Positions 1,390 to 25,788 of a stretch of DNA of 64,000 nucleotides are shown here, piece by piece. Origin of the DNA: a virus (Duplodnaviria; Heunggongvirae; Uroviricota; Caudoviricetes); the IMG/VR virus record IMGVR_UViG_2706795421_000001, positions 22,247 to 86,246 of that record. One strand, given 5' to 3'. The position numbers and the translations under genes were made by a program. Under the pieces are notes generated by a model. The model was given only the letters and a program-made list of their open reading frames with translations. It was not told the DNA's origin and made no database searches. Numbering within the stretch: position 1 is the first letter of the stretch; the number at the start of each line of letters is the position of its first letter.

Positions 1390-1746
1390 ATGAGCAAGTT
1401 CGTAAAGGGCCAGAGTGGCAACCCTCGTGGTCGGCCCACCAAGGAAGCTCAGGCCCTCAAGGCGATGTCTGCCGGAGAGCTTGATCACATCCTCAAGAAG
1501 CTGAAGCCTGCCAGTGCCAAGGCCATTCAGCTCATGATCGACGAAATGACCAATGCGTCCCAGACATCTCCAGTCCGTCTCAAGATGGCTGACAAGGTGT
1601 TCGCTGCCTACCTGGCAGCCCTGAGGGCACAGGCGTCGATTGACGCAGCAAAGAACAAGTCTGACGGTGTTCCTGAGCAGGAGGATGAACCTTCGGCACA
1701 GGTCGTAGAATTCTCGCTCACTATGCCTGCCAAGAAAGGAGCATAG
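1390..1746 (+). CDS. terminase small subunit-like protein (N-terminal KGQSGNPRGRP motif)
   Basis: GGAG RBS. The GNPxGRP N-terminus is recalled from phage TerS-type proteins. A coiled region follows. Confidence 0.45.
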   Translation: MSKFVKGQSGNPRGRPTKEAQALKAMSAGELDHILKKLKPASAKAIQLMIDEMTNASQTSPVRLKMADKVFAAYLAALRAQASIDAAKNKSDGVPEQEDEPSAQVVEFSLTMPAKKGA

Positions 1747-2767: not shown

Positions 2768-2844
2768 TTCCGTTCGGTCCCTCAAGGCGAGGGAGCTTGA
2801 CTGTTAATCAAGACGTGCCTGGATCGATTCCAGGGAGCGGAGCC
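2768..2844 (+). tRNA. tRNA-Asn (anticodon GTT)
   Basis: Acceptor TCCGTTC/GAGCGGA with one G-U pair. D-stem TCCC/GGGA. Anticodon stem CTTGA/TCAAG, loop CTGTTAA. T-arm CCTGG-ATCGATT-CCAGG. Encoded GCCA end. Position 8 is G and position 54 is A, both unusual. Confidence 0.5.
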
Positions 2845-2902
2845 AAAAGAGTAACCTCCACGCATAAGGCCTGGCACTGCGCACCAGGAGGTTAGTTTCA
2901 AT

Positions 2903-2990
2903 GGAGGGGTGGCAGAGCGGTTTAATGCACCGGCCTGTAAATCCGGCGTCCGACCGAGCATCGCTGGTTCAAATCCAGCCCCCTCCACCA
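2903..2990 (+). tRNA. tRNA-Tyr (anticodon GTA), type II with long variable arm
   Basis: Acceptor GGAGGGG/CCCCTCC. D-stem GCA/TGC. Anticodon loop CTGTAAA. T-arm GCTGG-TTCAAAT-CCAGC. Discriminator A and CCA are encoded. Confidence 0.65.
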
Positions 2991-2993
2991 AAT

Positions 2994-3114
2994 GCTGTGT
3001 AAGTTGGACTGTTGCAGTGAAGCGATAGGCTCCCCGGATCGTAAGCCGGTAACGTGGGGATAGAGGGCTCCCACCGCTGAGCAACAGGAGGTTCGATTCC
3101 TCAACACAGCCCCA
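2994..3114 (+). tRNA. elongated 121-nt tRNA-like element (perfect acceptor stem, canonical T-arm, CCA; about 45 nt extra; anticodon unresolved)
   Basis: GCTGTGT at 2994-3000 pairs with ACACAGC at 3104-3110, then C and CCA. T-arm GGAGG-TTCGATT-CCTCA. Internal near-duplication GATAGGCTCC / GATAGAGGGCTCC. Starts 3 nt after tRNA-Tyr. Confidence 0.35.
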
Positions 3115-3191
3115 AAACTGCTCCAGGCAGTTCAGCTAGGCTAGGCTTGAGAGGTAGTAGCCCGTTTTTCCAAACCCTCTCACTTACAATC

Positions 3192-3267
3192 AGGCGTGTG
3201 GCGAAAAGGTTAACGCACTGGACTTTGACTCCAGCATTCGAGGGTTCGAATCCCTCCACGTCTGCCA
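3192..3267 (+). tRNA. tRNA-Gln (anticodon TTG)
   Basis: Acceptor AGGCGTG/CACGTCT with one G-U pair. Anticodon stem CTGGA/TCCAG, loop CTTTGAC. T-arm GAGGG-TTCGAAT-CCCTC. G and CCA are encoded. Length 76 nt. Confidence 0.65.
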
Positions 3268-3324: not shown

Positions 3325-3354
3325 AGCCCCGGCGATCTTCGCTGGGGCTTTTTA
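3325..3354 (+). terminator. rho-independent terminator after the tRNA cluster
   Basis: AGCCCCGGCGATCTTCGCTGGGGCTTTTT. Confidence 0.6.
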
Positions 3355-3376
3355 CTTTCTCAACCCGTAATGGAGG

Positions 3377-4201
3377 TTGCAAATGACGTTCCAACCCACT
3401 CACGCACAAGCCAGCGTGATGTCTGACGATAAACACATGATAATTCTCTACGCCTCCCACGCAGGAGGTGGCAAGTCTCACCTCGTGGCTAAGTGGCTCA
3501 CAGAGCCCATGCACTTGGAAGGCTACCGAGGCTTGGCAGCCCGGAAAACGATTCCATTCCTCCTAGGCCCTGGCGGCCTTTCGCAAAAGATAGTAGATGT
3601 TGATCCCTCTCTTCGGTTCTTTCGGAGAGATTTGATGGTAAGGGCTCCAGATCGCAGGTCTTCAATAGTTCTTCGTGGTATCTCAAGCGGGGAATCAGTT
3701 CGGAGCCTGGCAGGATTCGTATTTCAAAGGGCAGCATTTGACGAAGCCAATCAGATCGACAGCAGCGCCATAACGTACCTACTGAGCAGGCTTAGGAGCT
3801 TCCAATGCCCCGAGGTGACTCCCCAGGTTTTGATGGCATTCTCTCACGGCGACTACTCCAACACCTTCATGGACACCTTGGTAAGGCCGTTTATCAAGAG
3901 TAACGACAGTCAGAGAGGCCACGGAGGGGTAGGGCCGATTGATTCCGAGAAGAGCGGTCAGACACGTTGGCTCACCTTTGTACGGGGGCAGCCTATTGTG
4001 GCCTCAAGTCAAGAGTCTTTAATGGACATCCTGGAGTGCTACTCAGGTCGAAAACCTGAACAAGGAGCCTTGATTCCGTACACACTGTATTACCAGCCTG
4101 AAGTCCACCCAGTAGTAAAGGAGCTTCATCCGGAGTACGAATCATTCATTAAGAACCTCCAACCGCCCCTTCGTACCTGTATGAGCGGCTATTGGGGGTA
4201 A
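3377..4201 (+). CDS. terminase large-subunit ATPase-domain paralog (TerL N-domain-like, no nuclease domain), 274 aa
   Basis: GGAGG RBS. Aligns by eye to the N-terminal third of the downstream TerL: HAGGGKSHL vs GAGAGKSYL, RGLAARKTIPFLLGPGG vs RGLITRRTTPQIKGPGG, AFDEANQ vs LVDEGQQ, LLSRLRSFQCPEVTPQ vs LMSRMRGPKCPEVEPH. Confidence 0.65.
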   Translation: MQMTFQPTHAQASVMSDDKHMIILYASHAGGGKSHLVAKWLTEPMHLEGYRGLAARKTIPFLLGPGGLSQKIVDVDPSLRFFRRDLMVRAPDRRSSIVLRGISSGESVRSLAGFVFQRAAFDEANQIDSSAITYLLSRLRSFQCPEVTPQVLMAFSHGDYSNTFMDTLVRPFIKSNDSQRGHGGVGPIDSEKSGQTRWLTFVRGQPIVASSQESLMDILECYSGRKPEQGALIPYTLYYQPEVHPVVKELHPEYESFIKNLQPPLRTCMSGYWG

Positions 4202-4205
4202 CGAA

Positions 4206-4230
4206 TAGCCCCGCCTAGCGGGGCTTTTTT
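4206..4230 (+). terminator. rho-independent terminator
   Basis: TAGCCCCGCCTAGCGGGGCTTTTTT. Confidence 0.65.
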
Positions 4231-4273
4231 GTGCCTGGGGATTGGCCCTGGGCAATGCAACAAGGAGCCTGAC

Positions 4274-4699
4274 ATGGCTTATGAAATGACCCCGGAGGAT
4301 AAAGTCCTCTACGATGCAATTGCCCGAATCGGCATCCTGGGAGCTATCCAGGCTGGCCTGATGAAGGCAGGAGATGGTGGCGAGCCGACCCCTGCACCCA
4401 CCGTAGACACCCTGGAAGGAGCGGGCGCCACTGGCAAGGCAGTGATGAAGGCTGCTGACGCTGCTACTGCACGCACTGCGATTGGTGCAGGCACATCCAA
4501 CCTGGCCATCGGCACCAGCGCAAGCACCGCCAAGGCCGGTAACTGGAAACCTGCTTGGGCAGATGTCACAGGCGGAGATGCAGCCGTTTCTTCTGCTGTT
4601 AAGGCCAAGGTGAACGCTGTCGCAGCAGTCGCTGAAGATGCTGAGCTGGGAGCTGTAGCTGCTAAGCTTAACGAACTGTTGGCTGCTTTAAAAGCATAA
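4274..4699 (+). CDS. hypothetical Ala/Gly-rich protein (141 aa)
   Basis: AAGGAG RBS 6 nt before the ATG at 4274. Low-complexity Ala-rich sequence ending in a coiled-coil-like tail. Confidence 0.5.
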   Translation: MAYEMTPEDKVLYDAIARIGILGAIQAGLMKAGDGGEPTPAPTVDTLEGAGATGKAVMKAADAATARTAIGAGTSNLAIGTSASTAKAGNWKPAWADVTGGDAAVSSAVKAKVNAVAAVAEDAELGAVAAKLNELLAALKA

Positions 4700-4780
4700 A
4701 CAGGGTCTAGGGGCTTGACAAAGTTAAGCCCCTAGCATATACTGACCATATAAGCAAGAGAAACTTTGAGGGCTTGACAA

Positions 4781-6199
4781 ATGACTAAGACAGTCATCGG
4801 TCCTAAGTCTCCGAAGCAGGAAGCGTTTATCAACTCCACTGCGAACATCACCGTGTTCGGTGGAGCTGCCGGGGCTGGTAAATCCTACCTCGGAGTGATG
4901 GACTTTCTAAAGCATGTGAAGCACCCGATGTTCCGGGGCCTGATCACTCGACGGACCACGCCTCAGATCAAAGGTCCTGGCGGCATCTTGGATAACTGCC
5001 TTCAGTTGTACAAGCAGTTTGACAAGAAGGTCAAATGGAAGGACAAGGACGGGAAATTCGTCTTCTCCTCGGGAGCTGAGATTCACCTTCGACACTTTGC
5101 CCACATCGACGATAAGGACAACTACCAGGGTCTGGAAATCAACGAATTCCTCGTTGACGAAGGACAGCAATACACCCTGGACATGTTGCTTTACTTGATG
5201 TCTCGTATGCGTGGTCCGAAGTGCCCCGAGGTTGAACCTCACATGAAGATCACCTGCAACCCTGATTATAACAGTCCGCTGCGTAAGTGGCTGACTTGGT
5301 ACCTGGACCCTGAGACAGGTATCCCGCTCCCCGAGAGGGACGGAATCACTCGGTTCTTCACTATCCAAAACGGAGACATGGAGTTCGCTGACACAGCGGA
5401 AGAGCTGATTGAGAAGTACAACCTGAAGTCTCCTCCCCTGACTTTCAAGTTCATCTCCGCCAACGTATACGACAACCCTGTCGTAATGGAGATTAACCCC
5501 CAGTACGTTGCCTGGCTTGAAGGTTTGAACCGGGTTGAGAAACTTCGACTGCTCCATGGTAGTTGGTTTGCCCGAGAAGAAGCAAGCGGCTACTTCAAGC
5601 GAGAATGGACTCCAATCATTCCGCTTAGGCCTACAGATACCGTGAGACAGGTAAGAGCCTGGGATATCAGCGGTACGCTGCCATCTGACTCCAACAAAGA
5701 GCCAGACTGGACAGCAGGCGTATTGATGAGCAAAGGCCGGAGTACGCTATACACAATCGAGGATGTGGTAAGGGACCGACGCCGGATTGGCGGGGTTTTT
5801 GAACTGATCCTTGAGACAGCAAGACATGACGGAGCTGACACGACGATCCTGATTCCACGTGATCCAGGAGCGGCAGGCCAGCACCTCGCATGGGACTTTG
5901 TTCGCCGACTGGCTGAGCACGGTTTCCATGCCAGGACCCGTCCAACCAACAAATCAAAGGTCACCCGGTTCGGTCCTTTTGCCAGCATGGCAGAGGCTGG
6001 AGGTGTTCAGGTAGTAGAAGGCCCCTGGAACGAGGCTTACCTGACGGAGCTGGAGGTGTTTGACGGAAGCCGAAATGTGAAGGACGACCAGGTGGACGCC
6101 ACCTCGGACGCCTACACTTATCTGGCATCTGACATCCACATTCCCAACTTCATCCCTCCGGACCTAACCCGACCCAACCCGCTGGCCATTGAACGATAG
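4781..6199 (+). CDS. terL: terminase large subunit
   Basis: 472 aa. Walker A GGAAGAGKSY, Walker B LVDEGQQ. C-terminal nuclease-like region with acidic residues (DPGAAG..., DDQVDATSDAY). Confidence 0.9.
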   Translation: MTKTVIGPKSPKQEAFINSTANITVFGGAAGAGKSYLGVMDFLKHVKHPMFRGLITRRTTPQIKGPGGILDNCLQLYKQFDKKVKWKDKDGKFVFSSGAEIHLRHFAHIDDKDNYQGLEINEFLVDEGQQYTLDMLLYLMSRMRGPKCPEVEPHMKITCNPDYNSPLRKWLTWYLDPETGIPLPERDGITRFFTIQNGDMEFADTAEELIEKYNLKSPPLTFKFISANVYDNPVVMEINPQYVAWLEGLNRVEKLRLLHGSWFAREEASGYFKREWTPIIPLRPTDTVRQVRAWDISGTLPSDSNKEPDWTAGVLMSKGRSTLYTIEDVVRDRRRIGGVFELILETARHDGADTTILIPRDPGAAGQHLAWDFVRRLAEHGFHARTRPTNKSKVTRFGPFASMAEAGGVQVVEGPWNEAYLTELEVFDGSRNVKDDQVDATSDAYTYLASDIHIPNFIPPDLTRPNPLAIER

Positions 6200-6208: not shown

Positions 6209-7702
6209 GTGGCTCGGAGAAAGAGGAACGTCAGAAAGGCGGCAACAGCGCCGGTGCCATCGGCCCCCCGCCTTCGGCTGGGCGAAATCGGACACACGGG
6301 CCTAAAGCAAAGCGGTGGTGCAATCTACGAGGAAACTCGGGCTGAGCTACGGTTCCCTGAGAACCTGAACACCTTCAAGGTGATGGCCCGAGACGCCACC
6401 ATTGCAAGTGCCCTGGCACTGTTCGAGTTGATGGTAAGCCGTGTAGAGTGGAGTGTCAAGGGTGGTACAGAGCCTGACACTGCCATGCAGGAGAAGGTGA
6501 AATTCCTCTCCCAGGTCATGCACGACATGGACCACACGTGGTACGACTTCATCAAAGAGGTGACCAGTTGCTTCACTTACGGCTTCTCGATCCATGAGAA
6601 GGTGTACCGGAAACGGACGTGGGCAAACGGTTCCAAGTACAATGACAACAAGATCGGCCTGAAGCGTCTCCCTGTTCGTTCTCAGGAGACCATCAGGAAG
6701 TGGCGGTTCAGTGACGATGGTCGGGACTTCTTGGGTGCTGTTCAATCTCCCAAGCTGATTAGCGGATGGGAGCAGCGGTACGGCACCTATCTGAAGAATC
6801 TCCCGAATGGCGGGGATGAGATTTTCATTCCGAAAGAGAAGTTCTTGAACTTCCGCATCGACCCGCGACGTGACAACCCTGAGGGTAATAGCCCTCTTAA
6901 AAACGTGTACTTCGCCTGGAGTTACCGGACTGCCCTGGAAGAGCAGGAAGCCGTAGGTATTACCCGAGATATGAACGGTATGCCTACCCTGTACATCCCT
7001 CCTCGGTACATGTCTCCGGACGCTTCGGACGAAGAGAAGGCGATCTACGAGTATTACAAGAACGCCATGCGGAACATCACCATGAATGAGCAAACGTCGC
7101 TCATTCTTCCGCAGCAGTTTGACCCGGAATCCCGCCTACCGCTGTTCAAGTTCGAGTTGACCAGCAGTCAGGGTGGTAAGATGTACGACACCGACGCAAT
7201 CATCAAGCGTTGGGATAACAAGATTCTTCAGGTCCTGTTCGCTGATGTTCTGAAGATGGGCCAGGACAACGTTGGCTCCTACAGCCTGGCAGGTGCTAAA
7301 ACCAACCTGATGGCAATGGCCATTGAAGCACGTTTGCAGATGATTCGGGACGTGCTGAACAACGACCTGGTACCTCAACTGTTCCGGTTAAACGGATATC
7401 GCCCCGATGAAGAGTTCCCCACCTTCGAGTTCGGCGACCTCGACGAGATTGACTTGGATGTTTACTCCAAGGCGATCCAGCGAATGATGTCCGTCGGTGG
7501 CCTAGAGTTTACTCGTGATGTGGCCAACCGAAACCGTAAGGCCATTGGCCTGCCGGAGCTTCCCGCCACTCAAGCTATCGACCGAGAGGCTTTGCCCTTG
7601 GCAAACGACAGCAAGGCGGGAGAGGGGATGAAGACGGCGGGTGAAGGGACTTCTAAGAGCCCCAGCGCCCGCGATGATTCAACCGCAAACCAGGATAACT
7701 GA
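6209..7702 (+). CDS. portal protein
   Basis: 497 aa with a GTG start after GGAGG. Sits immediately downstream of TerL. Size and position fit a DUF935/Mu gp29-type portal. Confidence 0.8.
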   Translation: MARRKRNVRKAATAPVPSAPRLRLGEIGHTGLKQSGGAIYEETRAELRFPENLNTFKVMARDATIASALALFELMVSRVEWSVKGGTEPDTAMQEKVKFLSQVMHDMDHTWYDFIKEVTSCFTYGFSIHEKVYRKRTWANGSKYNDNKIGLKRLPVRSQETIRKWRFSDDGRDFLGAVQSPKLISGWEQRYGTYLKNLPNGGDEIFIPKEKFLNFRIDPRRDNPEGNSPLKNVYFAWSYRTALEEQEAVGITRDMNGMPTLYIPPRYMSPDASDEEKAIYEYYKNAMRNITMNEQTSLILPQQFDPESRLPLFKFELTSSQGGKMYDTDAIIKRWDNKILQVLFADVLKMGQDNVGSYSLAGAKTNLMAMAIEARLQMIRDVLNNDLVPQLFRLNGYRPDEEFPTFEFGDLDEIDLDVYSKAIQRMMSVGGLEFTRDVANRNRKAIGLPELPATQAIDREALPLANDSKAGEGMKTAGEGTSKSPSARDDSTANQDN

Positions 7703-11812: not shown

Positions 11813-12432
11813 TGGCCCTGACCATGGACGAGCTGAGGGCGAAGTACCCTGGCATAGAGGACATTTACACTCAGTTGGAAGATGCTCTCTACAACGTAGC
11901 CGAAGCTGCCCTGGGGGATTTCCCTTTGGTGCTCAGCTATTGTGATAACCAACAGACCCAGACGCCTGCATTGTATATCGAACCGATGGATATCAAAGCA
12001 GTATTCACCGAACAGGTTGCAGGCACTCTGGAGATTGACCCAACAGACCCCGAAAGGGCTGTGCAAGAGGTCACCAAGTGGTATACCCTTAAAGCCCGTT
12101 TTACAGGCCTGGGAAGTCCACACAACCACGCCATGGCAGCGGCAGCAGTCCAGCATTTGGAATTCTTCCTCAGCACTGAGGATGGTTACCAGGCTTTGGA
12201 ATCCAACGGGTTCTCAAAGAACGGTGCCAATCCCATTCGCCGGATCAGGGATCAACGTCCCAATGAGTTGTACCAGCACTTCCGGTACGATGTCCATTTG
12301 TCCTACGCCATAACACGGAAAGAAGAGGTGACCTGGATCGAAGCTTTGGAGCTGGACGCGGTTTACACCAACGCCGGACGAGAGCCTGACCACGTTATCA
12401 AGAACCACATCTCACTCAACGAGGGACCCTGA
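11812..12432 (+). CDS. hypothetical structural protein (206 aa)
   Basis: TGATG overlap with the upstream stop. The in-frame 11713 start would overlap the upstream gene. Confidence 0.5.
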   Translation: MALTMDELRAKYPGIEDIYTQLEDALYNVAEAALGDFPLVLSYCDNQQTQTPALYIEPMDIKAVFTEQVAGTLEIDPTDPERAVQEVTKWYTLKARFTGLGSPHNHAMAAAAVQHLEFFLSTEDGYQALESNGFSKNGANPIRRIRDQRPNELYQHFRYDVHLSYAITRKEEVTWIEALELDAVYTNAGREPDHVIKNHISLNEGP

Positions 12433-12434
12433 AG

Positions 12435-13757
12435 ATGACCCGTCTTACCGACATCATCCAGATCACCATTGATCGGCAAACGCAGCCGGTAGCAACTACT
12501 GCGTTCAACGTGCCGATGTTCCTGGCTACCCACTCGAACTTCTCCGAGCGGGCGCGGGAATACGCATCGACGGAAGCTGTCATGGCAGACTTCCCGGACA
12601 ACAGCGCTGTCATGCGGGCCGCCCGTATGGCCTTCTCTCAGAACCCGCGCCCCAACCGCCTGATTGTAGGTCGCCGGAACGTGCCAGGAGCTACCGTCTC
12701 CATCGTAGAAGTGGCGCCTCAGACCACCTACACCATGACCCTGAACGGCATCCCGGTAAGCTACATGTCGAAGCCTGCCCCGGTAAACGAAGACGATGAA
12801 CCAGCAGACACCGCAGTAACCATTTGCGCCGGCCTGGTAGCTACTTTCAACGTCAGCCCGGTTCAAGGTATCACCTTGACCGACAATACCGACGGTACCA
12901 TCACTGTCCGTAGCTCTGAGACTGCCTGGTCGCTGACTACCTCGGCAAACCTGTCGAAGTCGAACATGCCGTCCACCGAAGGCTGGGGCGCTGCTGTTCT
13001 GGCTGTAAGCGCTGCCAACAGCAAGTGGTACGGTGCTACCATCGAATCTCACGTTCCGGCAGATGTTCTGGAAGTGGCTGCTACCATCGAGTCGATGAGC
13101 GCGAAGAAAATCTTCGGTACCTCTACCGACTCCGTAGCAGTGAAGAACGCCACTGCTGGCAACATCCTGGAGACCCTGAACAAGGCTGGTTACCATCGTA
13201 CCTTCCTGCTCTGGAATGCCCGTGCTGACCAGGACTTCCCGGAGCTGGGCTGGATGTCGAGCCAACTGCAAGAGCAGCCGGGCAGCAACACCTGGAGCTT
13301 CAAAGGCATCGCTGGCGCTACCTACGATGAGCTGGACGACCAAGAGTCTGCCAACATCCACGACAACAAGGGTAACACCTACGAGTTCGTTGGGGACGCC
13401 AACAGCACCACGTTCGGCAGCATGGTATCTGGCGAGTGGATCGACACCATGGTAGGCATCGACTGGTTTGAAGCCCGCCTCCGGGAGCGCCTGTGGTTCC
13501 GTCAGCGGAACAGCAAGAAAATCCCGTACACCAAGCAGGGCACCACCATCCTCGAAACGGATGTTCGAGCACAGCTCCAAGAGGGCATTCGAGTCCAACT
13601 GTTCACCGACACCCCGGCCCCTCGGGTCCGTGTACGGGACGCAAACAGCATGTCTCCGAATGATCGGGCTCGCCGGTTCTATGACGGTATCGAGTTCGAA
13701 GCTCAGCTCGCTGGTGCCATCCACATCATCGGTATCCGTGGCGTAGTCACGGCTTAA
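12435..13757 (+). CDS. putative tail sheath protein (440 aa)
   Basis: Immediately upstream of the tube-like paralogs, chaperones and tape measure. Size fits a sheath. Confidence 0.5.
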   Translation: MTRLTDIIQITIDRQTQPVATTAFNVPMFLATHSNFSERAREYASTEAVMADFPDNSAVMRAARMAFSQNPRPNRLIVGRRNVPGATVSIVEVAPQTTYTMTLNGIPVSYMSKPAPVNEDDEPADTAVTICAGLVATFNVSPVQGITLTDNTDGTITVRSSETAWSLTTSANLSKSNMPSTEGWGAAVLAVSAANSKWYGATIESHVPADVLEVAATIESMSAKKIFGTSTDSVAVKNATAGNILETLNKAGYHRTFLLWNARADQDFPELGWMSSQLQEQPGSNTWSFKGIAGATYDELDDQESANIHDNKGNTYEFVGDANSTTFGSMVSGEWIDTMVGIDWFEARLRERLWFRQRNSKKIPYTKQGTTILETDVRAQLQEGIRVQLFTDTPAPRVRVRDANSMSPNDRARRFYDGIEFEAQLAGAIHIIGIRGVVTA

Positions 13758-13767
13758 GGAGTAGACA

Positions 13768-14289
13768 ATGGCAGGCCGTACTTCCACTTACGCCCCTAAC
13801 CAGGTTACTATCGTAATCAACCATGCGGCTTCGGGTATCAGCCACACCCTGACCGGCTTCAGCGAAGACAGCATTGTCTCCGTTGAACGCCTGGTGGACA
13901 CGTTCACCGAGTACGTTGGTGCTGATGACACTCACACCCGAGTGTTCAACGCCAACTCAGGTGCTCGGGCTACCGTCAGCCTGGCTCAGACCTCGGAGTC
14001 GAACGATGTCCTGACCTTCCTTCACGAGTTTGACCGTGAAGCAATGTCCGCAGACGGTATGTTCGAGATGCTGATCAAGGACAACTCGGGCCGCTCCCTG
14101 TACTTCTCGGACGAGGCGTACATCGCAGTGATCCCGCAGGGCGGTTTCAGCAACCAGATGAACACCCGTGATTGGGTCATCTCCATGACCAACACTACGT
14201 TCCAACATGGCGGCAACCAGAAGGTGAGCCCCGCTACCGCAGACACCCTCACGGCTCTTGGTGTAAACCTCGACGCCCGCTGGCTGTAA
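13768..14289 (+). CDS. tail tube-like protein, paralog 1 (173 aa)
   Basis: Shares TYAP..VTIxI and LAQTSESNDVL-type motifs with the next two ORFs. A terminator follows. Confidence 0.5.
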   Translation: MAGRTSTYAPNQVTIVINHAASGISHTLTGFSEDSIVSVERLVDTFTEYVGADDTHTRVFNANSGARATVSLAQTSESNDVLTFLHEFDREAMSADGMFEMLIKDNSGRSLYFSDEAYIAVIPQGGFSNQMNTRDWVISMTNTTFQHGGNQKVSPATADTLTALGVNLDARWL

Positions 14290-14299
14290 GCGACAACCT

Positions 14300-14327
14300 G
14301 GCCGCCCCTCGTGGGCGGCCTTTTTTG
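14300..14327 (+). terminator. rho-independent terminator
   Basis: GGCCGCCCCTCGTGGGCGGCCTTTTTTG. Confidence 0.6.
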
Positions 14328-14341
14328 TACCTGGAGGAAAT

Positions 14342-14845
14342 ATGAACACCTTGACTTACTCTCCAAGAGAGGTTACGATCATCATCGCCGGAGCCCATGA
14401 AGTCACGGGTTACGCGGAGGGGGAGTTCGTTACGATCCAGAAAGAGGTCCAGGCCACACAGACCCAGCGAGCTATGGACGGATCAGTAGCCCGCCTGTAC
14501 ACCAAGGACGATGGTTATCGGATGACCCTCACCCTGGCACAATCCTCCCCAACCAACGACTTCTTGGGTGCCGTCTACAACCTGGACGCAGCAACCCGCA
14601 AAGGCAAGTTCCCTCTGGTGGTGAAAGACACCCTGGGAAACACGAACTTCTTCGCGGGTACGGCTTGGATCGAGACACCCCCTACCGTAGGGTTCGGTGG
14701 CACTCTCCGCGAAAACGTGTGGCGATTCGCCTGCTATGACGCTACCCTCCGGATTGGCGGGAACAGCGATCTTACTGACTTCGAGAACTATCTGAGTCAG
14801 GGCGCCGCCATTCTTCCAATCCTTCGACAGTACGGACTTATCTGA
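14342..14845 (+). CDS. tail tube-like protein, paralog 2 (167 aa)
   Basis: Paralogous to 13768..14289 (LTYSPREVTIIIA, LAQSSPTNDFL). Confidence 0.5.
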   Translation: MNTLTYSPREVTIIIAGAHEVTGYAEGEFVTIQKEVQATQTQRAMDGSVARLYTKDDGYRMTLTLAQSSPTNDFLGAVYNLDAATRKGKFPLVVKDTLGNTNFFAGTAWIETPPTVGFGGTLRENVWRFACYDATLRIGGNSDLTDFENYLSQGAAILPILRQYGLI

Positions 14846-15348
14846 TGACAAAGCGTGTGTTGACTTACGCTCCCGAGGATGTTAGACTGATAATCTCGGA
14901 GTTCGAATGCGTGGGTGTAGTCTCGGTTGAGGTGGTCTGGGACATGGAAATTTACCGTAAAGTGGTAGGTATCCGTGGTCAGGTGACCCGAGTTAGAAAC
15001 CTCAACCAATCTGCACGCATGCGGGTAGAGCTTCTACAGACCTCGGACACAAACGATGTCTTGTTCGACATCCTGACCCAAGACCGCGTGAACCAGTCCG
15101 GCAGGCTAGACCTGGCGTTGGCTGACAACAACGGCGATACCATCATCTACACCAACAACGCCTGGATTTCAGGCCACCCCCCGACTCGGAGGAGCTTAGG
15201 GTTTGACAACCCTGTGTGGACGATTGAGATTGCCCGAGTGACTGACCGCGACCTGTCAGGATCGAACAACCCCCTGGACTTCTTCAGCTTCGACGGGCTG
15301 AAGACAGCAGCAGACAATGCAATCAACTCGGTCTTAGACCAATTCTAA
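14845..15348 (+). CDS. tail tube-like protein, paralog 3 (167 aa)
   Basis: Paralogous (LTYAPEDVRLIIS, LLQTSDTNDVL). ATGA overlap with the upstream stop. Confidence 0.5.
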   Translation: MTKRVLTYAPEDVRLIISEFECVGVVSVEVVWDMEIYRKVVGIRGQVTRVRNLNQSARMRVELLQTSDTNDVLFDILTQDRVNQSGRLDLALADNNGDTIIYTNNAWISGHPPTRRSLGFDNPVWTIEIARVTDRDLSGSNNPLDFFSFDGLKTAADNAINSVLDQF

Positions 15349-15361
15349 AAGGAGAGCCCAA

Positions 15362-15748
15362 ATGGCACGCAAGCAACATTCCATCGAAATCAATGGTGAC
15401 CGTTTCCTGATCACCTCTATGCCGGCTACCACCGGCCTGACTCATCTTAAGATGCTTACCAAACTCCTCGGCCCGGCCCTGGCAGAAGCCGGTGCAGGCT
15501 CGAAAGAGGGGGCTGGTTCCCTTGACATCGCTACCCTGGTGGGCAAGGTGATCACCCGTATCGACGAGGTTGAGGTGGAGAAGATGATCATCGGTATGAT
15601 GACCAGCGTTTCCAAGAACAACATGGAAATCAACTTCAACGAGGAATTCTCGGCTGACTTCGGCAAGCTGTTCCAACTGGTGACTGAGGTGGTCAAGCTG
15701 AACTTCGGCTCGGTTTTTCAGGCACTCGGTTTCGACGGTCAACAGTAA
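15362..15748 (+). CDS. tail assembly chaperone (G-like)
   Basis: 128 aa. Canonical position between tube and tape measure. Confidence 0.5.
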   Translation: MARKQHSIEINGDRFLITSMPATTGLTHLKMLTKLLGPALAEAGAGSKEGAGSLDIATLVGKVITRIDEVEVEKMIIGMMTSVSKNNMEINFNEEFSADFGKLFQLVTEVVKLNFGSVFQALGFDGQQ

Positions 15749-15990
15749 GCGGGGAAGGGGGTGACCAGATGGTTCACCCCCGCCTGAAGCGGCTCATGAA
15801 GGAGTTCCAGAAGGACTACGAGGTCTATCAGGTGCTGACCCACTCTCTGCGCCTGGCCAGTCTTCACGAGCTGCAAACTCTGTACGATACCGAGGATTTG
15901 TATGACCTCCTAGAGTACCAGGCAGCCCACGACGAGGCCGCAGACATCGCCCGAGAAATAGCCAAGCTGAGGCAACAAGATGGCAACTGA
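15688..15990 (+). CDS. possible -1 frameshift extension of the tail chaperone (GT-like product)
   Basis: The -1 frame is open from 15688 to 15990 and overlaps the chaperone's last 60 nt. A U-rich stretch GGTTTTTC lies at 15712-15719. The in-frame ATG at 15769 could instead start an independent 73-aa ORF. Confidence 0.3.
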   Translation, partial: GGQAELRLGFSGTRFRRSTVSGEGGDQMVHPRLKRLMKEFQKDYEVYQVLTHSLRLASLHELQTLYDTEDLYDLLEYQAAHDEAADIAREIAKLRQQDGN

Positions 15991-18316
15991 AGAGATTACA
16001 AAACTCGTCGGGACGATCCAGTGGAGGGCGGATAACCGCCCCCTGCTGACGTTCAAGAAGAACCTGGAGCAGGTCCGGGACCGTCTCAACGAAGTGGCTG
16101 GCCTGGCCAACAAGAAAGTAACGATGAGGGTTGACCTTGATGGTCGTAGCCTGGCAGCCAAGATCAAGATGGCTACCAATGCCCAGATTCGTCTCAAGAA
16201 TGTGGACATCGCCCAGGACACCCTGGGAACGATGGTTAAGAAACTCAGCGAGCGGCTGGCAAACACTCCAGTCACGCTGAGCAATGTCCGTTTCAACATC
16301 AAGGATATCGCCCAACAGAAGCGATTCCTCCGCACGTTTATGCAGGGTTTGGCTCTGGAAATCCCCGTCTCGATCCGAGCGAGGAAGGCAGAACAGGCCC
16401 TGTTGGCATGGAAGCGGCAGACTGAGCAACGCTTCACGCTTCACCTGAATGCCGATATCAGTCAGTCCAAGTTCTACCGAAATGCTCGCCGGACCATCGA
16501 CGCAGTGATTCAAAGGCTGGGCACTATTACTCTCCGAACCCCCAACATCCGGTTGTCGGTTGACCGAGCCCATCTCAGGCAAGAGATTGCGGATGTTCTG
16601 GCGCAGATTCGCCGAGAGGCTCGGATTAGAATTGATTTGCAAGGCCATGTCAACCAGGTAAGGGGCAGGAATGCCCATGCTGTGGGTGGTTTGGCTGGTG
16701 CTGGTGCAGGGGCTGCTGTAGCCCACTGGGGACGAGGCTTCATCCCTGGCCTGGGAGGCGCGTTTGCCATTTCCCAGATGAACCAGATGGGTCAGCAGAT
16801 GATCGCGCAGCAGAACGCCATGGCTGCGGTAGGTGGTAGCCAGGAAGCTGGTCAAGCCACTATGGCACAGTTCAAGCAAATGGCCAACGAGGTAGGCTTC
16901 GATTGGCGGGCTGTTGCACCATCCTACACCAAAATGCTGGCCTCTGGTCAAGGGGCTGGGATGGATAAAGATGTTGTTGACAGCATCTTCCGTTCCATGA
17001 CAGAGTATGGTACTGTGATGGGCTTGGATACCGAGTCCATGAAGGGTTCTTTGCGAGCCGTCGAACAGATGATGAACAAAGAACAGGTGATGTCCGAAGA
17101 ACTGAAGCTCCAGTTGGGTGAACGGTTCCCGGCAGCCATGAGCCTGATGGCCCAGGCAGTCTCTGCGAGAGAAGGCAGAGAGATTAGCACCAGAGAACTC
17201 GGCGATATGATGGCGAAAGGGTTGGTCCGAACGGACGTGCTGCCCGAGTTTGCCCGTATCATTGCCGAGAAGGCCCGAGAAGGCGGTGCTTTGTCCAGGG
17301 CTCAGAACTCCACTGCGGCTCAGCAACAGCGGTTTAACAACGCCTGGTCGGACGCTGTAGGCTTGATCTACAACAACGGCATGGGTCAAGGAATGGCCAA
17401 CTTGTTCAAGGAGATGGCCAAGACGTTGAACGATAACGAGGAGGCCGTAAAAGGCTTGGGCGCTGCAATGGAGTGGCTCCTTTCCCCGTTCGAAGCGGCA
17501 GCTATCCTGATCCGACAGATGTTGCAGCAACTCCCCGACCTGGCCAGTAAGCTTGGCTTGACCTCTGGTCAGTTGATGGCTTTGGCTGGGGCTATTGGTC
17601 TGGCACTGTTCCCATTGGGGCAAATTGCCTTGGCCATTGGCGGCCTGTTCCTCGTGGTCGAAGACTTCGTTGGCTTCCTGCAAGGGAAGGATAGCGTTAT
17701 CGGAGACTTCTTCAACCAGTTGACGCCTGAACAGCAAGCTGTATGGCTGAAGATTGGTGGCGCAGTGGTTCAGACAGCCGAGGCAGTTGGGCGCCTGGCA
17801 GAGGCCATGGGGCAGCTTCTTGGTGGCTTTGCCGAGGGCGGGATGTTCTCCACGGCACTGGATTTCTTCACGTCGAAGATTCTAGCAGTGTTGACGGTGA
17901 TCACCAAGCTGGTTCAGGCCGCCGAGGCCCTTAAGAACCGGGACTTCGGTAAGGCTGCAAAGCTTGCTGGAGACGCCGGGGCCGTAGCACTGTCGAACAG
18001 CCCTGTAAACCTGCTCCTTAGGGAGGACCTCCGAGATAACCTGGAGGCTCGGGCACGCCGTGCTCAGAACGACATGGGCCGGAACATCGACGAAGACGTT
18101 CTACGCCGAGTCCCTGAGTACCTCAAAGCCGAGAACGGGGTTGGGGGTATGCCCAACGTGGGACAGATCACCCTGAACATCCCAATCCAGATCGAGAGTG
18201 CGCCTCAGATTCAGGACGAACGAGAGTTCAGCGAGATGCTGCAAACCCGGATCATGGACAGCTTCCATGACACTCTCCGCCAGGCCATGGTGGATGCGTC
18301 GGAGAACAAGAAATGA
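15980..18316 (+). CDS. tail tape measure protein (778 aa)
   Basis: Long alpha-helical/coiled protein with a Gly-rich hydrophobic segment (LALFPLGQIALAIGGLFLVV). Sits after the chaperones. Confidence 0.8.
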   Translation: MATEEITKLVGTIQWRADNRPLLTFKKNLEQVRDRLNEVAGLANKKVTMRVDLDGRSLAAKIKMATNAQIRLKNVDIAQDTLGTMVKKLSERLANTPVTLSNVRFNIKDIAQQKRFLRTFMQGLALEIPVSIRARKAEQALLAWKRQTEQRFTLHLNADISQSKFYRNARRTIDAVIQRLGTITLRTPNIRLSVDRAHLRQEIADVLAQIRREARIRIDLQGHVNQVRGRNAHAVGGLAGAGAGAAVAHWGRGFIPGLGGAFAISQMNQMGQQMIAQQNAMAAVGGSQEAGQATMAQFKQMANEVGFDWRAVAPSYTKMLASGQGAGMDKDVVDSIFRSMTEYGTVMGLDTESMKGSLRAVEQMMNKEQVMSEELKLQLGERFPAAMSLMAQAVSAREGREISTRELGDMMAKGLVRTDVLPEFARIIAEKAREGGALSRAQNSTAAQQQRFNNAWSDAVGLIYNNGMGQGMANLFKEMAKTLNDNEEAVKGLGAAMEWLLSPFEAAAILIRQMLQQLPDLASKLGLTSGQLMALAGAIGLALFPLGQIALAIGGLFLVVEDFVGFLQGKDSVIGDFFNQLTPEQQAVWLKIGGAVVQTAEAVGRLAEAMGQLLGGFAEGGMFSTALDFFTSKILAVLTVITKLVQAAEALKNRDFGKAAKLAGDAGAVALSNSPVNLLLREDLRDNLEARARRAQNDMGRNIDEDVLRRVPEYLKAENGVGGMPNVGQITLNIPIQIESAPQIQDEREFSEMLQTRIMDSFHDTLRQAMVDASENKK

Positions 18317-19080
18317 CGGTAGCTATTCAAAGAGAGTCTGGAGATATCATCTGGTTCGACGCCATTCTGAACCTCAGTATCTCCAGGGCCAACCAGGTGA
18401 CTCAGCACGTGGTAGAATCGGGAGCTTCGGTTACCGACCACGTGATTGCTCAGAATCAGAAGATGACCCTCTCGGGGGTCGTCTCTGACGCTGACTTCAA
18501 CCTGGACAGGCCGGTTATTACGGCTGCTGATGCTCAGGCTTTTGGGATCACTCCCAAGCCTTTTGTCAACAGTACGCCGGTGACATCGGGACCTATCATC
18601 ACTCCGGGAGCGGACACGGCATGGACCAGCTTCCTCCCGGAGACGGTCAACCAGTTCCTGGACTTGGACAGGCCAACCGTGGTGGTTCCAGCAGCCCCGA
18701 AAGAGAAGGGGGCAAACCTGATCCGAGAAGAATTGGACAGGATCACCAGGGACCGTGAGCGGATTGTTCTGCTGGACTTCGAAGGCTCTGCCGTGAGGAC
18801 CATCTTCCAGAACGTGGTGATCACCTCGATCAACTTCAAGGAAGACCCTCAGAGCGGAGAGTCGTTGTATGTGGACCTGGCATTTGAGGTGATCAGGACA
18901 ACCACCTTCCAGACGGCAGCCATTCCTAAGAAGGTGAGCGACTCGATCAAGAACAAGGCCAGCGAGAAGCAAGCCAAGGGCAAGCAAGCTCCGAAAGATG
19001 AGAAGGTGACGGACGCAGAAGGGAAGAACCCGAAAGGGGAAACCGTCCTGCACAGAATGACCAACCGGGAGGTGCGATAG
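18313..19080 (+). CDS. tail/baseplate assembly protein (255 aa)
   Basis: ATGA overlap with the tape-measure stop. Position matches the DNA-circulation/baseplate slot of Mu-like tails. Confidence 0.5.
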   Translation: MTVAIQRESGDIIWFDAILNLSISRANQVTQHVVESGASVTDHVIAQNQKMTLSGVVSDADFNLDRPVITAADAQAFGITPKPFVNSTPVTSGPIITPGADTAWTSFLPETVNQFLDLDRPTVVVPAAPKEKGANLIREELDRITRDRERIVLLDFEGSAVRTIFQNVVITSINFKEDPQSGESLYVDLAFEVIRTTTFQTAAIPKKVSDSIKNKASEKQAKGKQAPKDEKVTDAEGKNPKGETVLHRMTNREVR

Positions 19081-19445
19081 TGGCTATTCGAGAGCGGGCC
19101 AGGATGGTGGAGCTACCCACTTACCGAGACCCACAATACGCCTACCAAATGAAGCTGGGGGACCAAATCCGGTACCTCAGCTTTTCCTGGTCGGATAGGC
19201 AACGGTATTGGCACATGACCGTAGAAAACATGGACGGTGAGGTTATCATTCGGAACATGAAGTTGGTTCCGAACTACCCGCTAGGCTATGACTACGGATG
19301 GGCCAGTTACGGGTTGAACGGGTATTTCCTGGTTCTCCCGGACAACCACAAGAACGACATCTGTGAAGATATCTCTACTCTCAACGAGTTCTTCGAACTG
19401 TACTACGTGGAGATTGAGGAATACGACGATAGCGAGGAGGTGTAA
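19080..19445 (+). CDS. hypothetical baseplate protein (121 aa, GTG start)
   Basis: TAGTG overlap with the upstream stop. Confidence 0.45.
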   Translation: MAIRERARMVELPTYRDPQYAYQMKLGDQIRYLSFSWSDRQRYWHMTVENMDGEVIIRNMKLVPNYPLGYDYGWASYGLNGYFLVLPDNHKNDICEDISTLNEFFELYYVEIEEYDDSEEV

Positions 19446-20327
19446 ATGGAACAGTTCGAACGGGTGTACTTGCTCACCGTTGGGGATTACCGTACAGGCA
19501 GAGGCGTCTTGATCAAGGATGTACACATGCGGTTCGACATCAGCAAGTCGGCAGACAACAAGAAGAAGTCCAACAGTGCCACGGTCGAACTGTACAACCT
19601 CTCAGCAAGCACCCGAGCAATGCTTGATACGGATTATCTCTCGGTCAAGCTGGAAGTAGGCTATACAGCAGCCGGCACCCGAGTGGTTCTGGAAGGAAAT
19701 GTGGTTGAGCGTCGGACTGCTCAGCAGGGTCCGGACATGGTGACTCAGCTCATCCTGGGCGAGGGGTATACTGACCTCAACCACATCCGGCTCAAGCAGA
19801 CTATTCCTCCGGGACAGACTGCTAAGGATGTCATTGAGGCTGCAATGGGGCAGCTCCCTGGGGTAGTGCGAGGAGTGTTCTCGGGTACCAACATCAACAA
19901 CCCTGTAGTGTTCGGATACCCCATGGACGGAAGTGCCAAGGAAGTGTTGAACGACATTTGCCGGGACAACAACATGGAGTGGAGGTGCGATGCAGGAGCC
20001 CTCTACGTCAACGATATCAACGGTATCCACGACAAGAATATCAGGTCGGCCCCTGTGCTGAACGAGTCTACAGGCCTAATCGGCATCCCCTACCGGACAT
20101 CCTCCGAAGGTAACCGGCAGAAGGGAGACAAGAGACGGACGCAAGGGGTTCAATTCAAAGCCCTGCTGAACGCCGACTTTGCCCCTGGGCAAGTGGTTCG
20201 TATCGAGTCCAAAGAAGTCACAGGCTGGTATCGGATCAACTCAGCCAGGTACTACGGGGGCTACGATGACCAGGAATGGTACGTCGATTGCTTCTGTGGC
20301 ATCATTATCGAGGAAGACTTGAGATGA
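19446..20327 (+). CDS. baseplate hub-like protein (293 aa)
   Basis: Sits upstream of the V-like spike. Size and position fit a Mu gpP / P2 gpD-like hub. Confidence 0.5.
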   Translation: MEQFERVYLLTVGDYRTGRGVLIKDVHMRFDISKSADNKKKSNSATVELYNLSASTRAMLDTDYLSVKLEVGYTAAGTRVVLEGNVVERRTAQQGPDMVTQLILGEGYTDLNHIRLKQTIPPGQTAKDVIEAAMGQLPGVVRGVFSGTNINNPVVFGYPMDGSAKEVLNDICRDNNMEWRCDAGALYVNDINGIHDKNIRSAPVLNESTGLIGIPYRTSSEGNRQKGDKRRTQGVQFKALLNADFAPGQVVRIESKEVTGWYRINSARYYGGYDDQEWYVDCFCGIIIEEDLR

Positions 20328-21082: not shown

Positions 21083-21088
21083 GGTGTT

Positions 21089-22921: not shown

Positions 22922-22922
22922 C

Positions 22923-23687: not shown

Positions 23688-23697
23688 GAGAGCAAAA

Positions 23698-25761: not shown

Positions 25762-25762
25762 C

Positions 25763-25788
25763 AAAAATAGGCCCGTAAGGGCCTTTAT
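25763..25788 (+). terminator. rho-independent terminator
   Basis: AAAAATAGGCCCGTAAGGGCCTTTAT. Confidence 0.6.

Follow-up and report, generated by a model that had tools for sequence, protein, structure and literature searches.

A stand-alone homolog of the terminase ATPase domain encoded upstream of a complete large terminase in Nankokuvirus phages

Viral packaging motors are homomeric rings of the large terminase (TerL), regulated by an unrelated small subunit (TerS). Why, then, would a tailed phage that encodes a complete TerL carry, just upstream, a second gene resembling only the ATPase half of that protein? The question is raised by a stretch of 64,000 nucleotides (the window; positions 22,247 to 86,246 of IMG/VR record IMGVR_UViG_2706795421_000001), which belongs to Pseudomonas phage vB_PaeM_PAO1_Ab03 (Nankokuvirus; KPP10/PAK_P3 group). 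We analyzed the gene model, homology, conservation and expression of this gene, and weighed the functions that it may have.

Gene model and homology to the large terminase

The gene is located in the packaging/head module, with tRNAs on one side and TerL-portal on the other (Table 1). An earlier note, made from the sequence alone, had described an ORF of 274 aa at 3377..4201. Its frame is intact, but the TTG at 3377 is not the start: this codon sits between the ribosome-binding site (RBS) and an ATG at 3383, and the ortholog annotations begin at the ATG, giving a protein of 272 aa (hereafter the ATPase-only protein). The orthologs are PAK_P3 gp164 (PAK_P30164), KPP10_gp158, G1 gp049 and LSL4_gp20. 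In the Ab03 record, the gene is annotated merely as a 59-aa C-terminal piece (ORF55). The gene does have its own RBS and terminator, as the same note had claimed, and another hairpin with a T-run precedes it. Describing the nearby ORFs as low in GC is a weak characterization, given a GC content of 0.49-0.52 there versus ~0.55 around.

Table 1. Coordinates of the ATPase-only gene, its neighbors and its putative regulatory signals in the window
Feature	Position	Strand	Details
DUF5681 protein	1390..1746	+	118 aa; Pfam PF18932, 30.9 bits; first gene of the rightward late unit
Intrinsic terminator-like hairpin and T-run	3325..3353 (hairpin 3325-3349)	+	Pattern scan; RNA fold -21.2 kcal/mol, z=-5.5
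Antisense RNA, as_20 equivalent	3335..3540	-	PAK_P3 annotation; in Ab03 inferred from sequence conservation only
Shine-Dalgarno GGAGG	3372..3376	+	6 nt 5' of ATG 3383; read from sequence; invariant in four genomes
Stand-alone TerL-type ATPase domain protein (ATPase-only protein), CDS	3383..4201	+	272 aa; ATG start, stop TAA 4199-4201
Intrinsic terminator-like hairpin and T-run	4207..4230 (hairpin 4207-4225)	+	-19.2 kcal/mol, z=-4.1; 5 nt past the stop
Head-fibre gene	4274..4699	+	141 aa; phrog_1954/5711; RefSeq annotation; between the ATPase-only gene and TerL
Near-consensus sigma-70-type promoter, TTGACA-17-TATACT	4715..4743	+	11/12 matches; dedicated to TerL
Complete TerL	4781..6199	+	472 aa; Terminase_6N ATPase and Terminase_6C RNaseH-like nuclease; Pfam/PHROG

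The ATPase-only protein is free-standing and homologous to the ATPase domain of TerL. Formal alignment bears out the block-by-block resemblance that had been claimed: BLASTP aligns it with the N-terminal ATPase half of the resident TerL over 254 aa at 26% identity (62.4 bits, E=2e-15), and hhalign pairs its residues 2-262 with TerL residues 5-252 (99.9% probability, E=3.2e-31, 233 columns). The shared blocks include the P-loop (SHAGGGKSHL versus AAGAGKSYL in TerL, one letter of which had been miscopied in the earlier note), the Walker B region (AAFDE versus FLVDE) and the pairs RGLAARKTIPFLLGPGG versus RGLITRRTTPQIKGPGG and LLSRLRSFQCPEV versus LMSRMRGPKCPEV. The protein matches phrog_979, the PHROG of the resident TerL (E=6.6e-21), and its own family, phrog_15848, over profile positions 1-272 of 272 (residues 3-274, E=3.2e-157). 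Curated models missed it because the sequence is too divergent: Pfam returned just a sub-threshold hit to Terminase_3 (15.8 bits; gathering cut-off 23.2) and NCBIfam returned no match.

A search of PDB chain sequences with the ATPase-only protein and TerL found nothing for the former even at E<=10, so the fold search was run on a model instead. The AF2 model is a single-domain alpha/beta P-loop ATPase (pLDDT 86.3, pTM 0.86). In the PDB, Foldseek places at the top the ATPase domains of TerL from P74-26, Sf6, D6E, HK97, phi29 and T4; in BFVD, the model superposes on full-length TerLs along their first ~280 residues (TMq 0.81-0.83). As modeled, the protein corresponds to one complete TerL ATPase domain (the Rossmann core and lid, up to the hinge) and nothing more. 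No TerS family matched it in Pfam, PHROG or NCBIfam, nor among the PDB fold matches listed.

The ATPase-only protein keeps K31, R54, D120, E121, R136, R138, Y252, G269 and W271, residues that show no or almost no variation across 20 TerLs. These include the Walker A lysine, the Walker B aspartate, the catalytic glutamate E121 and three invariant arginines, which the earlier note had singled out in part for checking. The Walker A motif conforms to [G/A/S]xxxxGK[ST] and reads 25-SHAGGGKS-32, with the catalytic K31 present and K31, G28 and G30 invariant. Its glycine at -6, found in the TerLs of the clade, is indeed replaced by serine; a serine at this first Walker A position is also found in T4 gp17. 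The Walker B motif and catalytic glutamate read 116-RAAFDE-121; all four alleles keep D120 and E121, P0003 reading VDE here.

Other clade-invariant motifs are altered, namely GG to AS before the P-loop, NP to SH in the C-motif and DN to VH in the DNP motif. The C-motif, or motif III, terminates the strand that follows Walker B and couples hydrolysis to translocation. In the ATPase-only protein the TCNP of the clade is not preserved and reads [A/T]FSH: the N and P are invariant in the 20 TerLs, and S154 and H155 are fixed in all ATPase-only alleles. Partial C-motif function is possible since a polar serine remains. In total, 14 of the 32 most conserved TerL positions deviate from the TerL consensus, Q110 included, and 12 of the 14 are fixed across all alleles. 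Given these deviations, the ATPase activity could be impaired or re-purposed.

The nuclease domain is absent, as had been noted: the protein terminates (...GYWG-stop) at the G-x-W hinge and nothing aligns to TerL 266-472. RefSeq (YP_008857799.1 and orthologs) and PHROG 15848 label the family "terminase large subunit". This label misleads, as the protein has no nuclease half and the true TerL lies 580 bp downstream; a protein that ends at the hinge without Terminase_6C is not functionally a TerL, despite the RefSeq name. These annotations, together with Henry et al. 2015 (S1 Text, PMC4309531), who called the protein "Terminase?" and suggested a small-terminase role, precede the earlier note, which was wrong to regard the arrangement as undescribed. 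A literature search for TerL paralogs or second, truncated terminase genes found nothing relevant.

Conservation, origin and expression

The ATPase-only gene is a genuine, selectively maintained gene. Among 41 Nankokuvirus records, 40 contain the 272-aa frame unbroken; in the remaining one, only the record ends interrupt it. For every allele pair dN/dS is 0.14-0.25, and differences among the alleles of Ab03, PAK_P3, G1 and LSL4 fall mostly at third codon positions. In codons 161-272 (the 3' half) dS is saturated and the protein is still kept. Only 2 of the 32 columns most conserved in TerL vary among the four alleles, versus 74 of 240 elsewhere (Fisher p=0.0027). One may still suspect that the ORF is an artefact of annotation or a functionless leftover in decay, be it a pseudogene, a piece of TerL or part of a split gene, as the Ab03 record has only the 59-aa fragment and the Terminase_3 hit is below threshold. 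This reading is hardly credible and is refuted by the intact frame in all 41 genomes, the purifying selection with saturated dS, the conserved RBS, the confident single-domain fold and the late transcription of the PAK_P3 ortholog. Thus the earlier claim that the gene, with its own RBS and terminators, is not a pseudogene fragment stands. A split TerL gene was also rejected: the resident TerL (dN/dS 0.009) is complete and collinear with its counterpart in Pakpunavirus JG004 (60% identical). Because that TerL has its own complete ATPase domain, 26% identical to the ATPase-only protein, the gene is an extra copy and not half of a split gene.

The gene is restricted to one genus. Stand-alone copies of the TerL N-terminal domain, which the earlier note had proposed to look for in other phages, are present in every Nankokuvirus (41 records) and in none of the other sequenced phage groups. 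A homolog search with the ATPase-only protein retrieved three clusters, all Nankokuvirus-like, and a phmmer search of 1.84 billion representative proteins gave 22 matches and no related stand-alone family: all matches are 409-517 aa long, bar one 216-aa entry that is a contig-end fragment. In IMG/VR we found KPP10 only, and in JGI metagenomes nothing. The sister genus Pakpunavirus has no ATPase-only gene; it possesses an orthologous TerL and likewise packages a genome with direct terminal repeats.

In the phylogeny, a very long branch leads to the ATPase-only protein, and ~2 substitutions per site separate it from every TerL. None of 200 bootstraps groups it with the resident or the sister-genus TerL, and its score against the resident TerL is not above those against other TerLs of the clade. 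For these reasons paralogy to the resident TerL in the strict sense, which the earlier note had assumed, is not demonstrable, and a recent in-genome duplication was rejected on the tree and the score comparison. The protein probably derived long ago from a TerL of the same broad clade, by an old duplication or acquisition, and then diverged fast.

Together with the head-fibre gene, the ATPase-only gene forms a Nankokuvirus-specific, unusually divergent block (dS of 0.77 and 0.95, respectively, versus ~0.2 in the flanks). The head-fibre gene is absent at the corresponding position in JG004, and its product was detected in the PAK_P3 virion as gp166. The two allele groups of the ATPase-only protein are 79% identical whereas TerL is 99.6% identical between the same phages, so a tight co-evolving interface with TerL is not evident. 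The one other candidate for a small terminase is the DUF5681 protein, encoded upstream. It has a weak syntenic homolog in JG004 (E=3e-5) and no match to a TerS family in Pfam, PHROG or NCBIfam; the search for relatives to align retrieved its own cluster only.

The hairpin preceding the gene is identical (100%) in Ab03, PAK_P3, G1 and LSL4, and none of 200 shuffles was as stable. It closes the tRNA/sRNA transcription unit directly 5' of the ATPase-only gene. Since this terminator ends the preceding unit, transcription of the gene must rely either on read-through or on a late promoter that escaped recognition; the pattern scan found no recognisable promoter for it between its two strong flanking terminators. 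The PAK_P3 ortholog gp164 is a late gene (log2FC 6.37), with late normalised counts of ~43,000 over 819 nt versus ~472,000 over 1419 nt for TerL, which is ~16% of TerL per kb. The promoter dedicated to TerL fits the substantial early TerL mRNA in PAK_P3. The PAK_P3 antisense RNA as_20 overlaps the ortholog from its RBS through the start to about codon 50, and was classified as "early specific" (log2FC late/early -2.3; Chevallereau 2016 S-tables). In the virion proteome of PAK_P3, where the earlier note had suggested looking for the protein, the ortholog is not marked as detected; this gives no positive support and is unsurprising, as it is expected for a terminase component.

Possible roles of the ATPase-only protein

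We tentatively propose that the ATPase-only protein is an accessory packaging ATPase that modulates TerL, a reading to which we assign a probability of roughly 45%. It would be a non-core component of the packaging module. To judge from its retained residues, it would bind and probably hydrolyse ATP. It is predicted to be unable to cut DNA or to serve as a translocating motor, because it has no nuclease or C-terminal domain and the TCNP of the C-motif is replaced. Most likely, it would associate with TerL, the DNA substrate or both, either when packaging starts or while it proceeds. In that case it would not be a second motor but a TerS-like activator or modulator, or else a member of the TerL ring present in sub-stoichiometric amounts. 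An accessory status of the gene fits the situation in Pakpunavirus, where TerL is orthologous, the genome has direct terminal repeats and no such gene occurs. Overall, the data favour a packaging-associated accessory role and speak somewhat against a stoichiometric decoy. A bolder and less likely version is a non-canonical Nankokuvirus terminase with an ATPase-only working subunit. This subunit would be either a regulatory protomer of the TerL pentamer (a heteromeric motor) or the bearer of a TerS-type, ATP-dependent role in initiation or activation; the protomer would be catalytically active, non-cutting and non-translocating, and would be intercalated into or docked onto the pentamer.

Could the protein instead substitute for the canonical TerS as the DNA-recognition subunit of the holoenzyme, as proposed by Henry et al. 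2015 and by the earlier note? The gene lies 5' of TerL in the late packaging unit and is expressed late, and no recognisable TerS is annotated in these phages. Still, we consider this unlikely. Its predicted P-loop ATPase fold, where a helix-turn-helix and an oligomerisation ring would be expected, excludes identity with a canonical TerS. The sister genus packages its direct-terminal-repeat genome with an orthologous TerL and without such a protein. In addition, a head-fibre gene, a terminator and a separate promoter intervene before TerL, and another candidate for the TerS exists in the DUF5681 protein, which is small and basic and is found in syntenic position in both genera.

Some immune sensors of the host, the Avs-type receptors, recognise TerL. 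By mimicking the TerL ATPase domain, the protein might serve as a decoy that blunts such TerL-sensing immunity, or as a subunit that poisons the packaging motors of related competitors (superinfection interference). The gene is accessory and genus-restricted, and sits in a mosaic block with a synonymous divergence 4-5x that of the flanks, as is usual for accessory loci that can be exchanged. Its late expression coincides with that of TerL, and its product keeps the nucleotide-binding site while having lost the coupling motifs. A decoy nevertheless seems quite improbable. With an mRNA at just ~16% of TerL per kb, and antisense silencing early, when TerL mRNA is already present, the gene would be poorly designed for a stoichiometric decoy. 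Its dN/dS (0.14-0.25) gives no sign of diversifying selection, no PADLOC defence-related model matched the protein, and the catalytic glutamate and arginines that it keeps are unneeded for a decoy. More doubtful again is a re-purposing for a non-packaging late function tied to the neighboring gene, such as head-fibre assembly or attachment. The two genes adjoin, are both specific to KPP10-like phages and missing from PAK_P1-like phages, share the elevated divergence and have similar late mRNA levels. However, a strong terminator separates them, linkage alone explains their co-divergence, and the constraint in the ATPase-only protein tracks the nucleotide-site residues of TerL. Nor do we know of any case in which a TerL-type ATPase serves as a chaperone of assembly.

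Significance and comparison with known systems

The scope of the finding is one genus, and the existence of the gene was noted in 2015. A conserved, late-expressed gene with intact catalytic residues and altered coupling motifs, placed beside a complete TerL, is nonetheless a natural experiment in setting ATP binding and hydrolysis apart from the cutting and translocation of DNA. If the ATPase-only protein partners with TerL, it would offer a tractable system for inter-subunit (trans) regulation in packaging motors. If a heteromeric motor or a takeover of the TerS role proved true, this would be a previously uncharacterised packaging architecture in tailed phages. PAK_P3 and KPP10 are well-studied therapeutic phages for which transcriptomes and proteomes exist, and the misleading label can distort TerL-based phylogenies and predictions of packaging strategy for these phages.

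The Ab03 protein does not differ from PHROG 15848, the RefSeq family and "family 201" of Henry et al. 2015 (PMC4309531), which are all the same protein family. With canonical TerLs (the T4-gp17/Felix-O1-like clade; Terminase_6N and Terminase_6C; PHROG 979) it has in common the ASCE P-loop fold and lid, the Walker A lysine, the Walker B aspartate and the catalytic glutamate, as well as the R-x-T and S-R-x-R arginines, the clade-specific C-PEV-P block and the P-x-Y...G-x-W hinge. Unlike them, it possesses no RNaseH-like nuclease or C-terminal domain, its GG, C-motif N-P and D-N-P are replaced, and it is encoded by its own cistron, at ~16% of TerL mRNA, beside a complete TerL. TerS proteins are likewise small, encoded 5' of TerL and late, and the ATPase-only protein could in principle regulate TerL as they do. 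It differs from them by its P-loop ATPase fold, by not being encoded immediately next to TerL and by being missing in the sister genus.

A free-standing ATPase-domain ORF can also result when TerL is split into separately encoded ATPase and nuclease halves, or when introns, inteins or homing endonucleases interrupt it, and the BFVD matches include several intein-/HEG-containing TerLs and a few short TerL-fold proteins. In contrast to split TerLs, the downstream TerL of Ab03 keeps a complete orthologous ATPase domain. The packaging ATPases of phi29-like phages (phi29 gp16 and phi28 gp11) are nuclease-less too, and are among the structural matches (5hd9, E=2.5e-4; 7jq6, E=3e-4). Their C-terminal domain docks on pRNA/portal. 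Whereas these ATPases are the sole motor ATPase, the ATPase-only protein has no C-terminal domain at all and coexists with a full TerL.

A stand-alone TerL-type ATPase domain

The window corresponds to positions 22247-86246 of vB_PaeM_PAO1_Ab03 (LN610573/NC_026587; identified by megablast), a virulent myovirus of the genus Nankokuvirus. This genus comprises the KPP10/PAK_P3-like phages, whose fixed genome ends carry a ~771-bp direct terminal repeat (Essoh et al. 2015, PMC4482731). The late packaging and head module begins at the region of the short open reading frame (ORF) studied here. The earlier note had described this ORF as a free-standing paralog of the ATPase domain of the terminase large subunit (TerL); the feature is real and was correctly spotted. 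By BLASTP, the short ORF matches the N-terminal half of the resident TerL (the complete 472-aa protein of the same phage) over 254 residues with 26% identity (E=2e-15). Comparing a profile of the four known alleles of the short protein with a profile of 20 TerLs (hhalign) gave a probability of 99.9% (E=3.2e-31) over 233 columns, with paralog residues 2-262 aligned to TerL residues 5-252. Homology to the TerL ATPase half is thus formally supported, and all the sequence blocks quoted in the earlier note are present in the alignment.

Aligning the alleles with related TerLs yielded a confident AlphaFold2 model (mean pLDDT 86.3, pTM 0.86). Its best matches in a Foldseek search of the PDB are packaging ATPases, with the P74-26 TerL ATPase domain on top (E=8e-7), followed in order by Sf6 gp2, D6E, HK97, phi29 gp16 and T4 gp17. 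In a search of predicted viral structures, the entire model overlays the N-terminal ~280 residues of complete TerLs (TMq 0.81-0.83). The BFVD matches also include short viral proteins with the TerL ATPase fold, namely A0A7G5AYQ1 (244 aa), A0A8F3EBT8 (225 aa), A0A514AB09 (222 aa) and H9YTM0 (327 aa), which have no detectable sequence similarity to the short-protein family. They may be split-TerL halves, fragments or independent stand-alone ATPase-domain proteins.

Features of the region around the short ATPase gene (positions in the window)
Feature	Position	Remarks
AT-rich intergenic stretch	~900-1350	GC 0.35-0.41; separates divergent leftward and rightward gene blocks
DUF5681 gene	1390-1746	first in module order; first gene of the late rightward unit
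Two small ORFs		after the DUF5681 gene, before the tRNAs
Three tRNAs	2769-3267	before the short ORF
tRNA-Asn(GTT)	2769-2845	called by ARAGORN
Upstream hairpin	3325-3349	intrinsic-terminator-like; -21.2 kcal/mol, z=-5.5
Antisense RNA as20	3335-3540 (equivalent)	PAK_P3 record 86650-86855; minus strand
Shine-Dalgarno GGAGG	3372-3376	six bases 5' of the start codon
Short ORF (ATPase-domain gene)	3383-4201	plus strand; Ab03 record 25629-26447; between tRNAs and head-fibre gene
Mosaic block	~3400-4700	short ATPase gene and head-fibre gene
Downstream hairpin	4207-4225	intrinsic-terminator-like; -19.2 kcal/mol, z=-4.1
Head-fibre gene	4274-4699	between short ORF and TerL
TerL promoter	4715-4743	sigma-70, TTGACA-17-TATACT
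TerL	4781-6199	plus strand; after head-fibre gene
Portal	6209-7702	after TerL

The gene starts at ATG 3383 rather than at TTG 3377 as first proposed, based on the Shine-Dalgarno spacing and on orthologs annotated from the same ATG as 272-aa proteins. Strong hairpins flank it on both sides, and the 95 nt upstream (terminator, ribosome-binding site and start) are 100% identical in the DNA alignment of the alleles. Both the GenBank and the RefSeq record of Ab03 annotate just the final 59 codons (ORF55, 'hypothetical protein'), although the full 272-aa frame is intact. The PHROG phrog_33771 (59 aa, unknown function) appears to have been built from truncated gene calls of this kind.

Elsewhere in the region, a 5.5-kb scan of both strands found 10 sigma-70-like promoter matches versus 3.0 expected, most of them within the AT-rich intergenic stretch, which is the AT-rich low-coverage region near 23,000 of Essoh et al. 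2015 (PMC4482731). At the gathering threshold, Rfam's tRNA model recovered the Tyr and Gln tRNAs alone; the tRNA-Asn(GTT), which is also missing from the RefSeq annotation of PAK_P3, may be atypical or degenerate.

Motifs retained and altered

Relative to the ATPase half of the 20 aligned TerLs, the short protein retains every invariant or near-invariant residue: Walker A G28/G30/K31, R54, Walker B D120, the catalytic E121, R136, R138, Y252 and the terminal G269-x-W271. It ends two residues past this G269-x-W271 hinge, the point where the TerL nuclease domain begins, and is therefore a complete ATPase domain (core and lid) alone. The residue differs at 14 of the 32 columns most conserved in TerLs, and 12 of these changes are fixed across all alleles. 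The P-loop is preceded by A-S instead of GG, the N-P of the C-motif is altered (TCNP to [A/T]FSH), the D-N of the 'DNP' motif becomes V-H with a 4-residue insertion, and Q110 is changed as well. In ASCE motors such as T4 gp17, hydrolysis is coupled to translocation through the C-motif. From this residue pattern, the short protein would be a module that binds and probably hydrolyses ATP, with altered mechanochemical coupling.

Integrity, selection and expression

The short ORF is a functional gene, as indicated by its integrity, selection and expression. Using tblastn, we found an unbroken 272-aa frame in 40 of the 41 Nankokuvirus records, and the remaining one is split merely by the record ends. 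Between the Ab03 and KPP10/G1 clades the gene has a DNA identity of only 78% and a protein identity of 79%, against a DNA identity of about 95-97% in the genes on either side, yet its dN/dS is 0.146 (dN 0.139, dS 0.95); the corresponding ratios are 0.009 for TerL, 0.023 for the portal and 0.16 for the DUF5681 gene, and other allele pairs of the short gene give 0.14-0.25. The allele DNA alignment has a third-position substitution pattern, and in codons 161-272 the protein is retained with synonymous sites saturated (dS>3). Substitutions avoid the TerL-conserved columns (2/32 versus 74/240 elsewhere, Fisher p=0.0027).

In the RNA-seq data of PAK_P3 (Chevallereau et al. 2016, PMC4933390, S tables), the ortholog gp164 is expressed late (log2 late/early 6.37). 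It reaches ~43,000 late normalised counts on its 819 nt, compared with ~472,000 on the 1419 nt of TerL. Its late mRNA thus amounts to ~16% of that of TerL per kb, similar to the adjacent head-fibre gene. The antisense RNA as20 (as_20), over the ribosome-binding site and start of gp164, is early-specific in the tables of that study (log2FC -2.3), whereas its GenBank note reads 'only expressed during late stage of infection'. A search of the window's minus strand turned up no sigma-70-like promoter from which this antisense RNA could be transcribed. The intact frame across the Nankokuvirus records, the dN/dS and the late transcription refute the alternative of a non-functional remnant.

Together with the head-fibre gene, the short ATPase gene makes up a mosaic block whose synonymous sites have diverged 4-5 times as much as those of the flanks. 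Against the KPP10/G1 clade, DNA identity is 71-89% within the block (dS 0.77 for the head-fibre gene) and 93-99% in the flanking genes (dS about 0.2). Divergence climbs steadily along the short ATPase gene, a gradient suggestive of recombination breakpoints within the gene. An early TerL transcript driven by host RNA polymerase is unusual for a packaging gene. TerL has a near-consensus promoter of its own downstream of the head-fibre gene, and the PAK_P3 TerL (gp001) already reaches 12,000-28,000 normalised counts at 3.5 min, unlike other head genes (Chevallereau 2016 S5).

Distribution, origin and possible role

The short-protein family is extremely narrow and confined to one genus. At 90% identity its members fall into three clusters among 5.8 billion proteins, and at 50% identity they make up a single cluster among 1.84 billion representatives (exhaustive search). 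The other 21 matches of the exhaustive search are weak (E of at least 6e-8) and 409-517 aa long, except one contig-end fragment. The IMG/VR search returned KPP10 only, and the search of JGI metagenomes returned none. The best-scoring TerLs belong to the subclade of the resident TerL (phrog_979), and no other subclade has the C-PEV-P block in common with the short protein. The short protein scores no higher against its own TerL (62 bits) than against the TerL of JG004, a phage of the sister genus Pakpunavirus (73 bits), or the metagenomic TerL P0004 (74-89 bits). In a bootstrapped neighbor-joining tree its branch is ~2 substitutions per site long, and it joins the TerL of its own phage or of the sister genus in 0/200 bootstraps. 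These results rule out a recent duplication of the resident TerL and point to an old paralog or xenolog that diverged fast.

The earlier note took the arrangement for undescribed, which is incorrect. In Henry et al. 2015 (PLoS One, PMC4309531; S1 Text and family table) the protein appears as 'family 201 - Terminase?' (numbered PAK_P30165 there), specific to KPP10-like phages, with HHpred probabilities >99.5% to Sf6 and T4 terminases; their table flags the adjacent head fibre among PAK_P3 virion proteins and does not flag family 201. The orthologs are 'terminase large subunit' in RefSeq and have a dedicated PHROGs family (phrog_15848). Our literature search found no paper taking the analysis further. 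The present analysis adds the domain-exact anatomy, the pattern of motif retention and loss, measures of selection, evidence that excludes a recent duplication, the family's global rarity and the link to expression data. The interest lies in a natural 'ATPase-only' TerL derivative, albeit one limited to a single genus and already noted and annotated.

Our preferred explanation, tentatively held at a probability of roughly 45%, is an accessory packaging ATPase. Made late and at a sub-TerL level, the protein would bind and probably hydrolyse ATP, would be unable to cut DNA or to translocate it alone, and would modulate or activate packaging by associating with TerL, with the DNA substrate or with both. 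A strict role as a substitute for the small terminase subunit (TerS) is weakened by the fold, by the sister genus lacking the gene and by the small DUF5681 protein, which has a weak syntenic counterpart in both genera (PJG4_045 in JG004, E=3e-5). The latter protein (118 aa, with a basic N-terminus, GNPRGRP), for which the homolog search for modelling found no wider homologs, may be the real small terminase. A decoy or poison role is less likely: the mRNA ratio is low, the gene is silenced early by antisense RNA at a time when TerL mRNA is already there, and diversifying selection is lacking. A role tied to the head fibre has the linkage of the two genes as its sole basis.

In Pakpunavirus JG004 the tRNA cluster abuts TerL and both the short gene and the head-fibre gene are absent, while its TerL is collinear with that of Ab03 and 60% identical. 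Direct terminal repeats are found in Pakpunavirus too (Essoh et al. 2015, PMC4482731). The absence of the short gene despite such a similar TerL and the terminal repeats indicates that it is accessory rather than part of the core packaging machinery.
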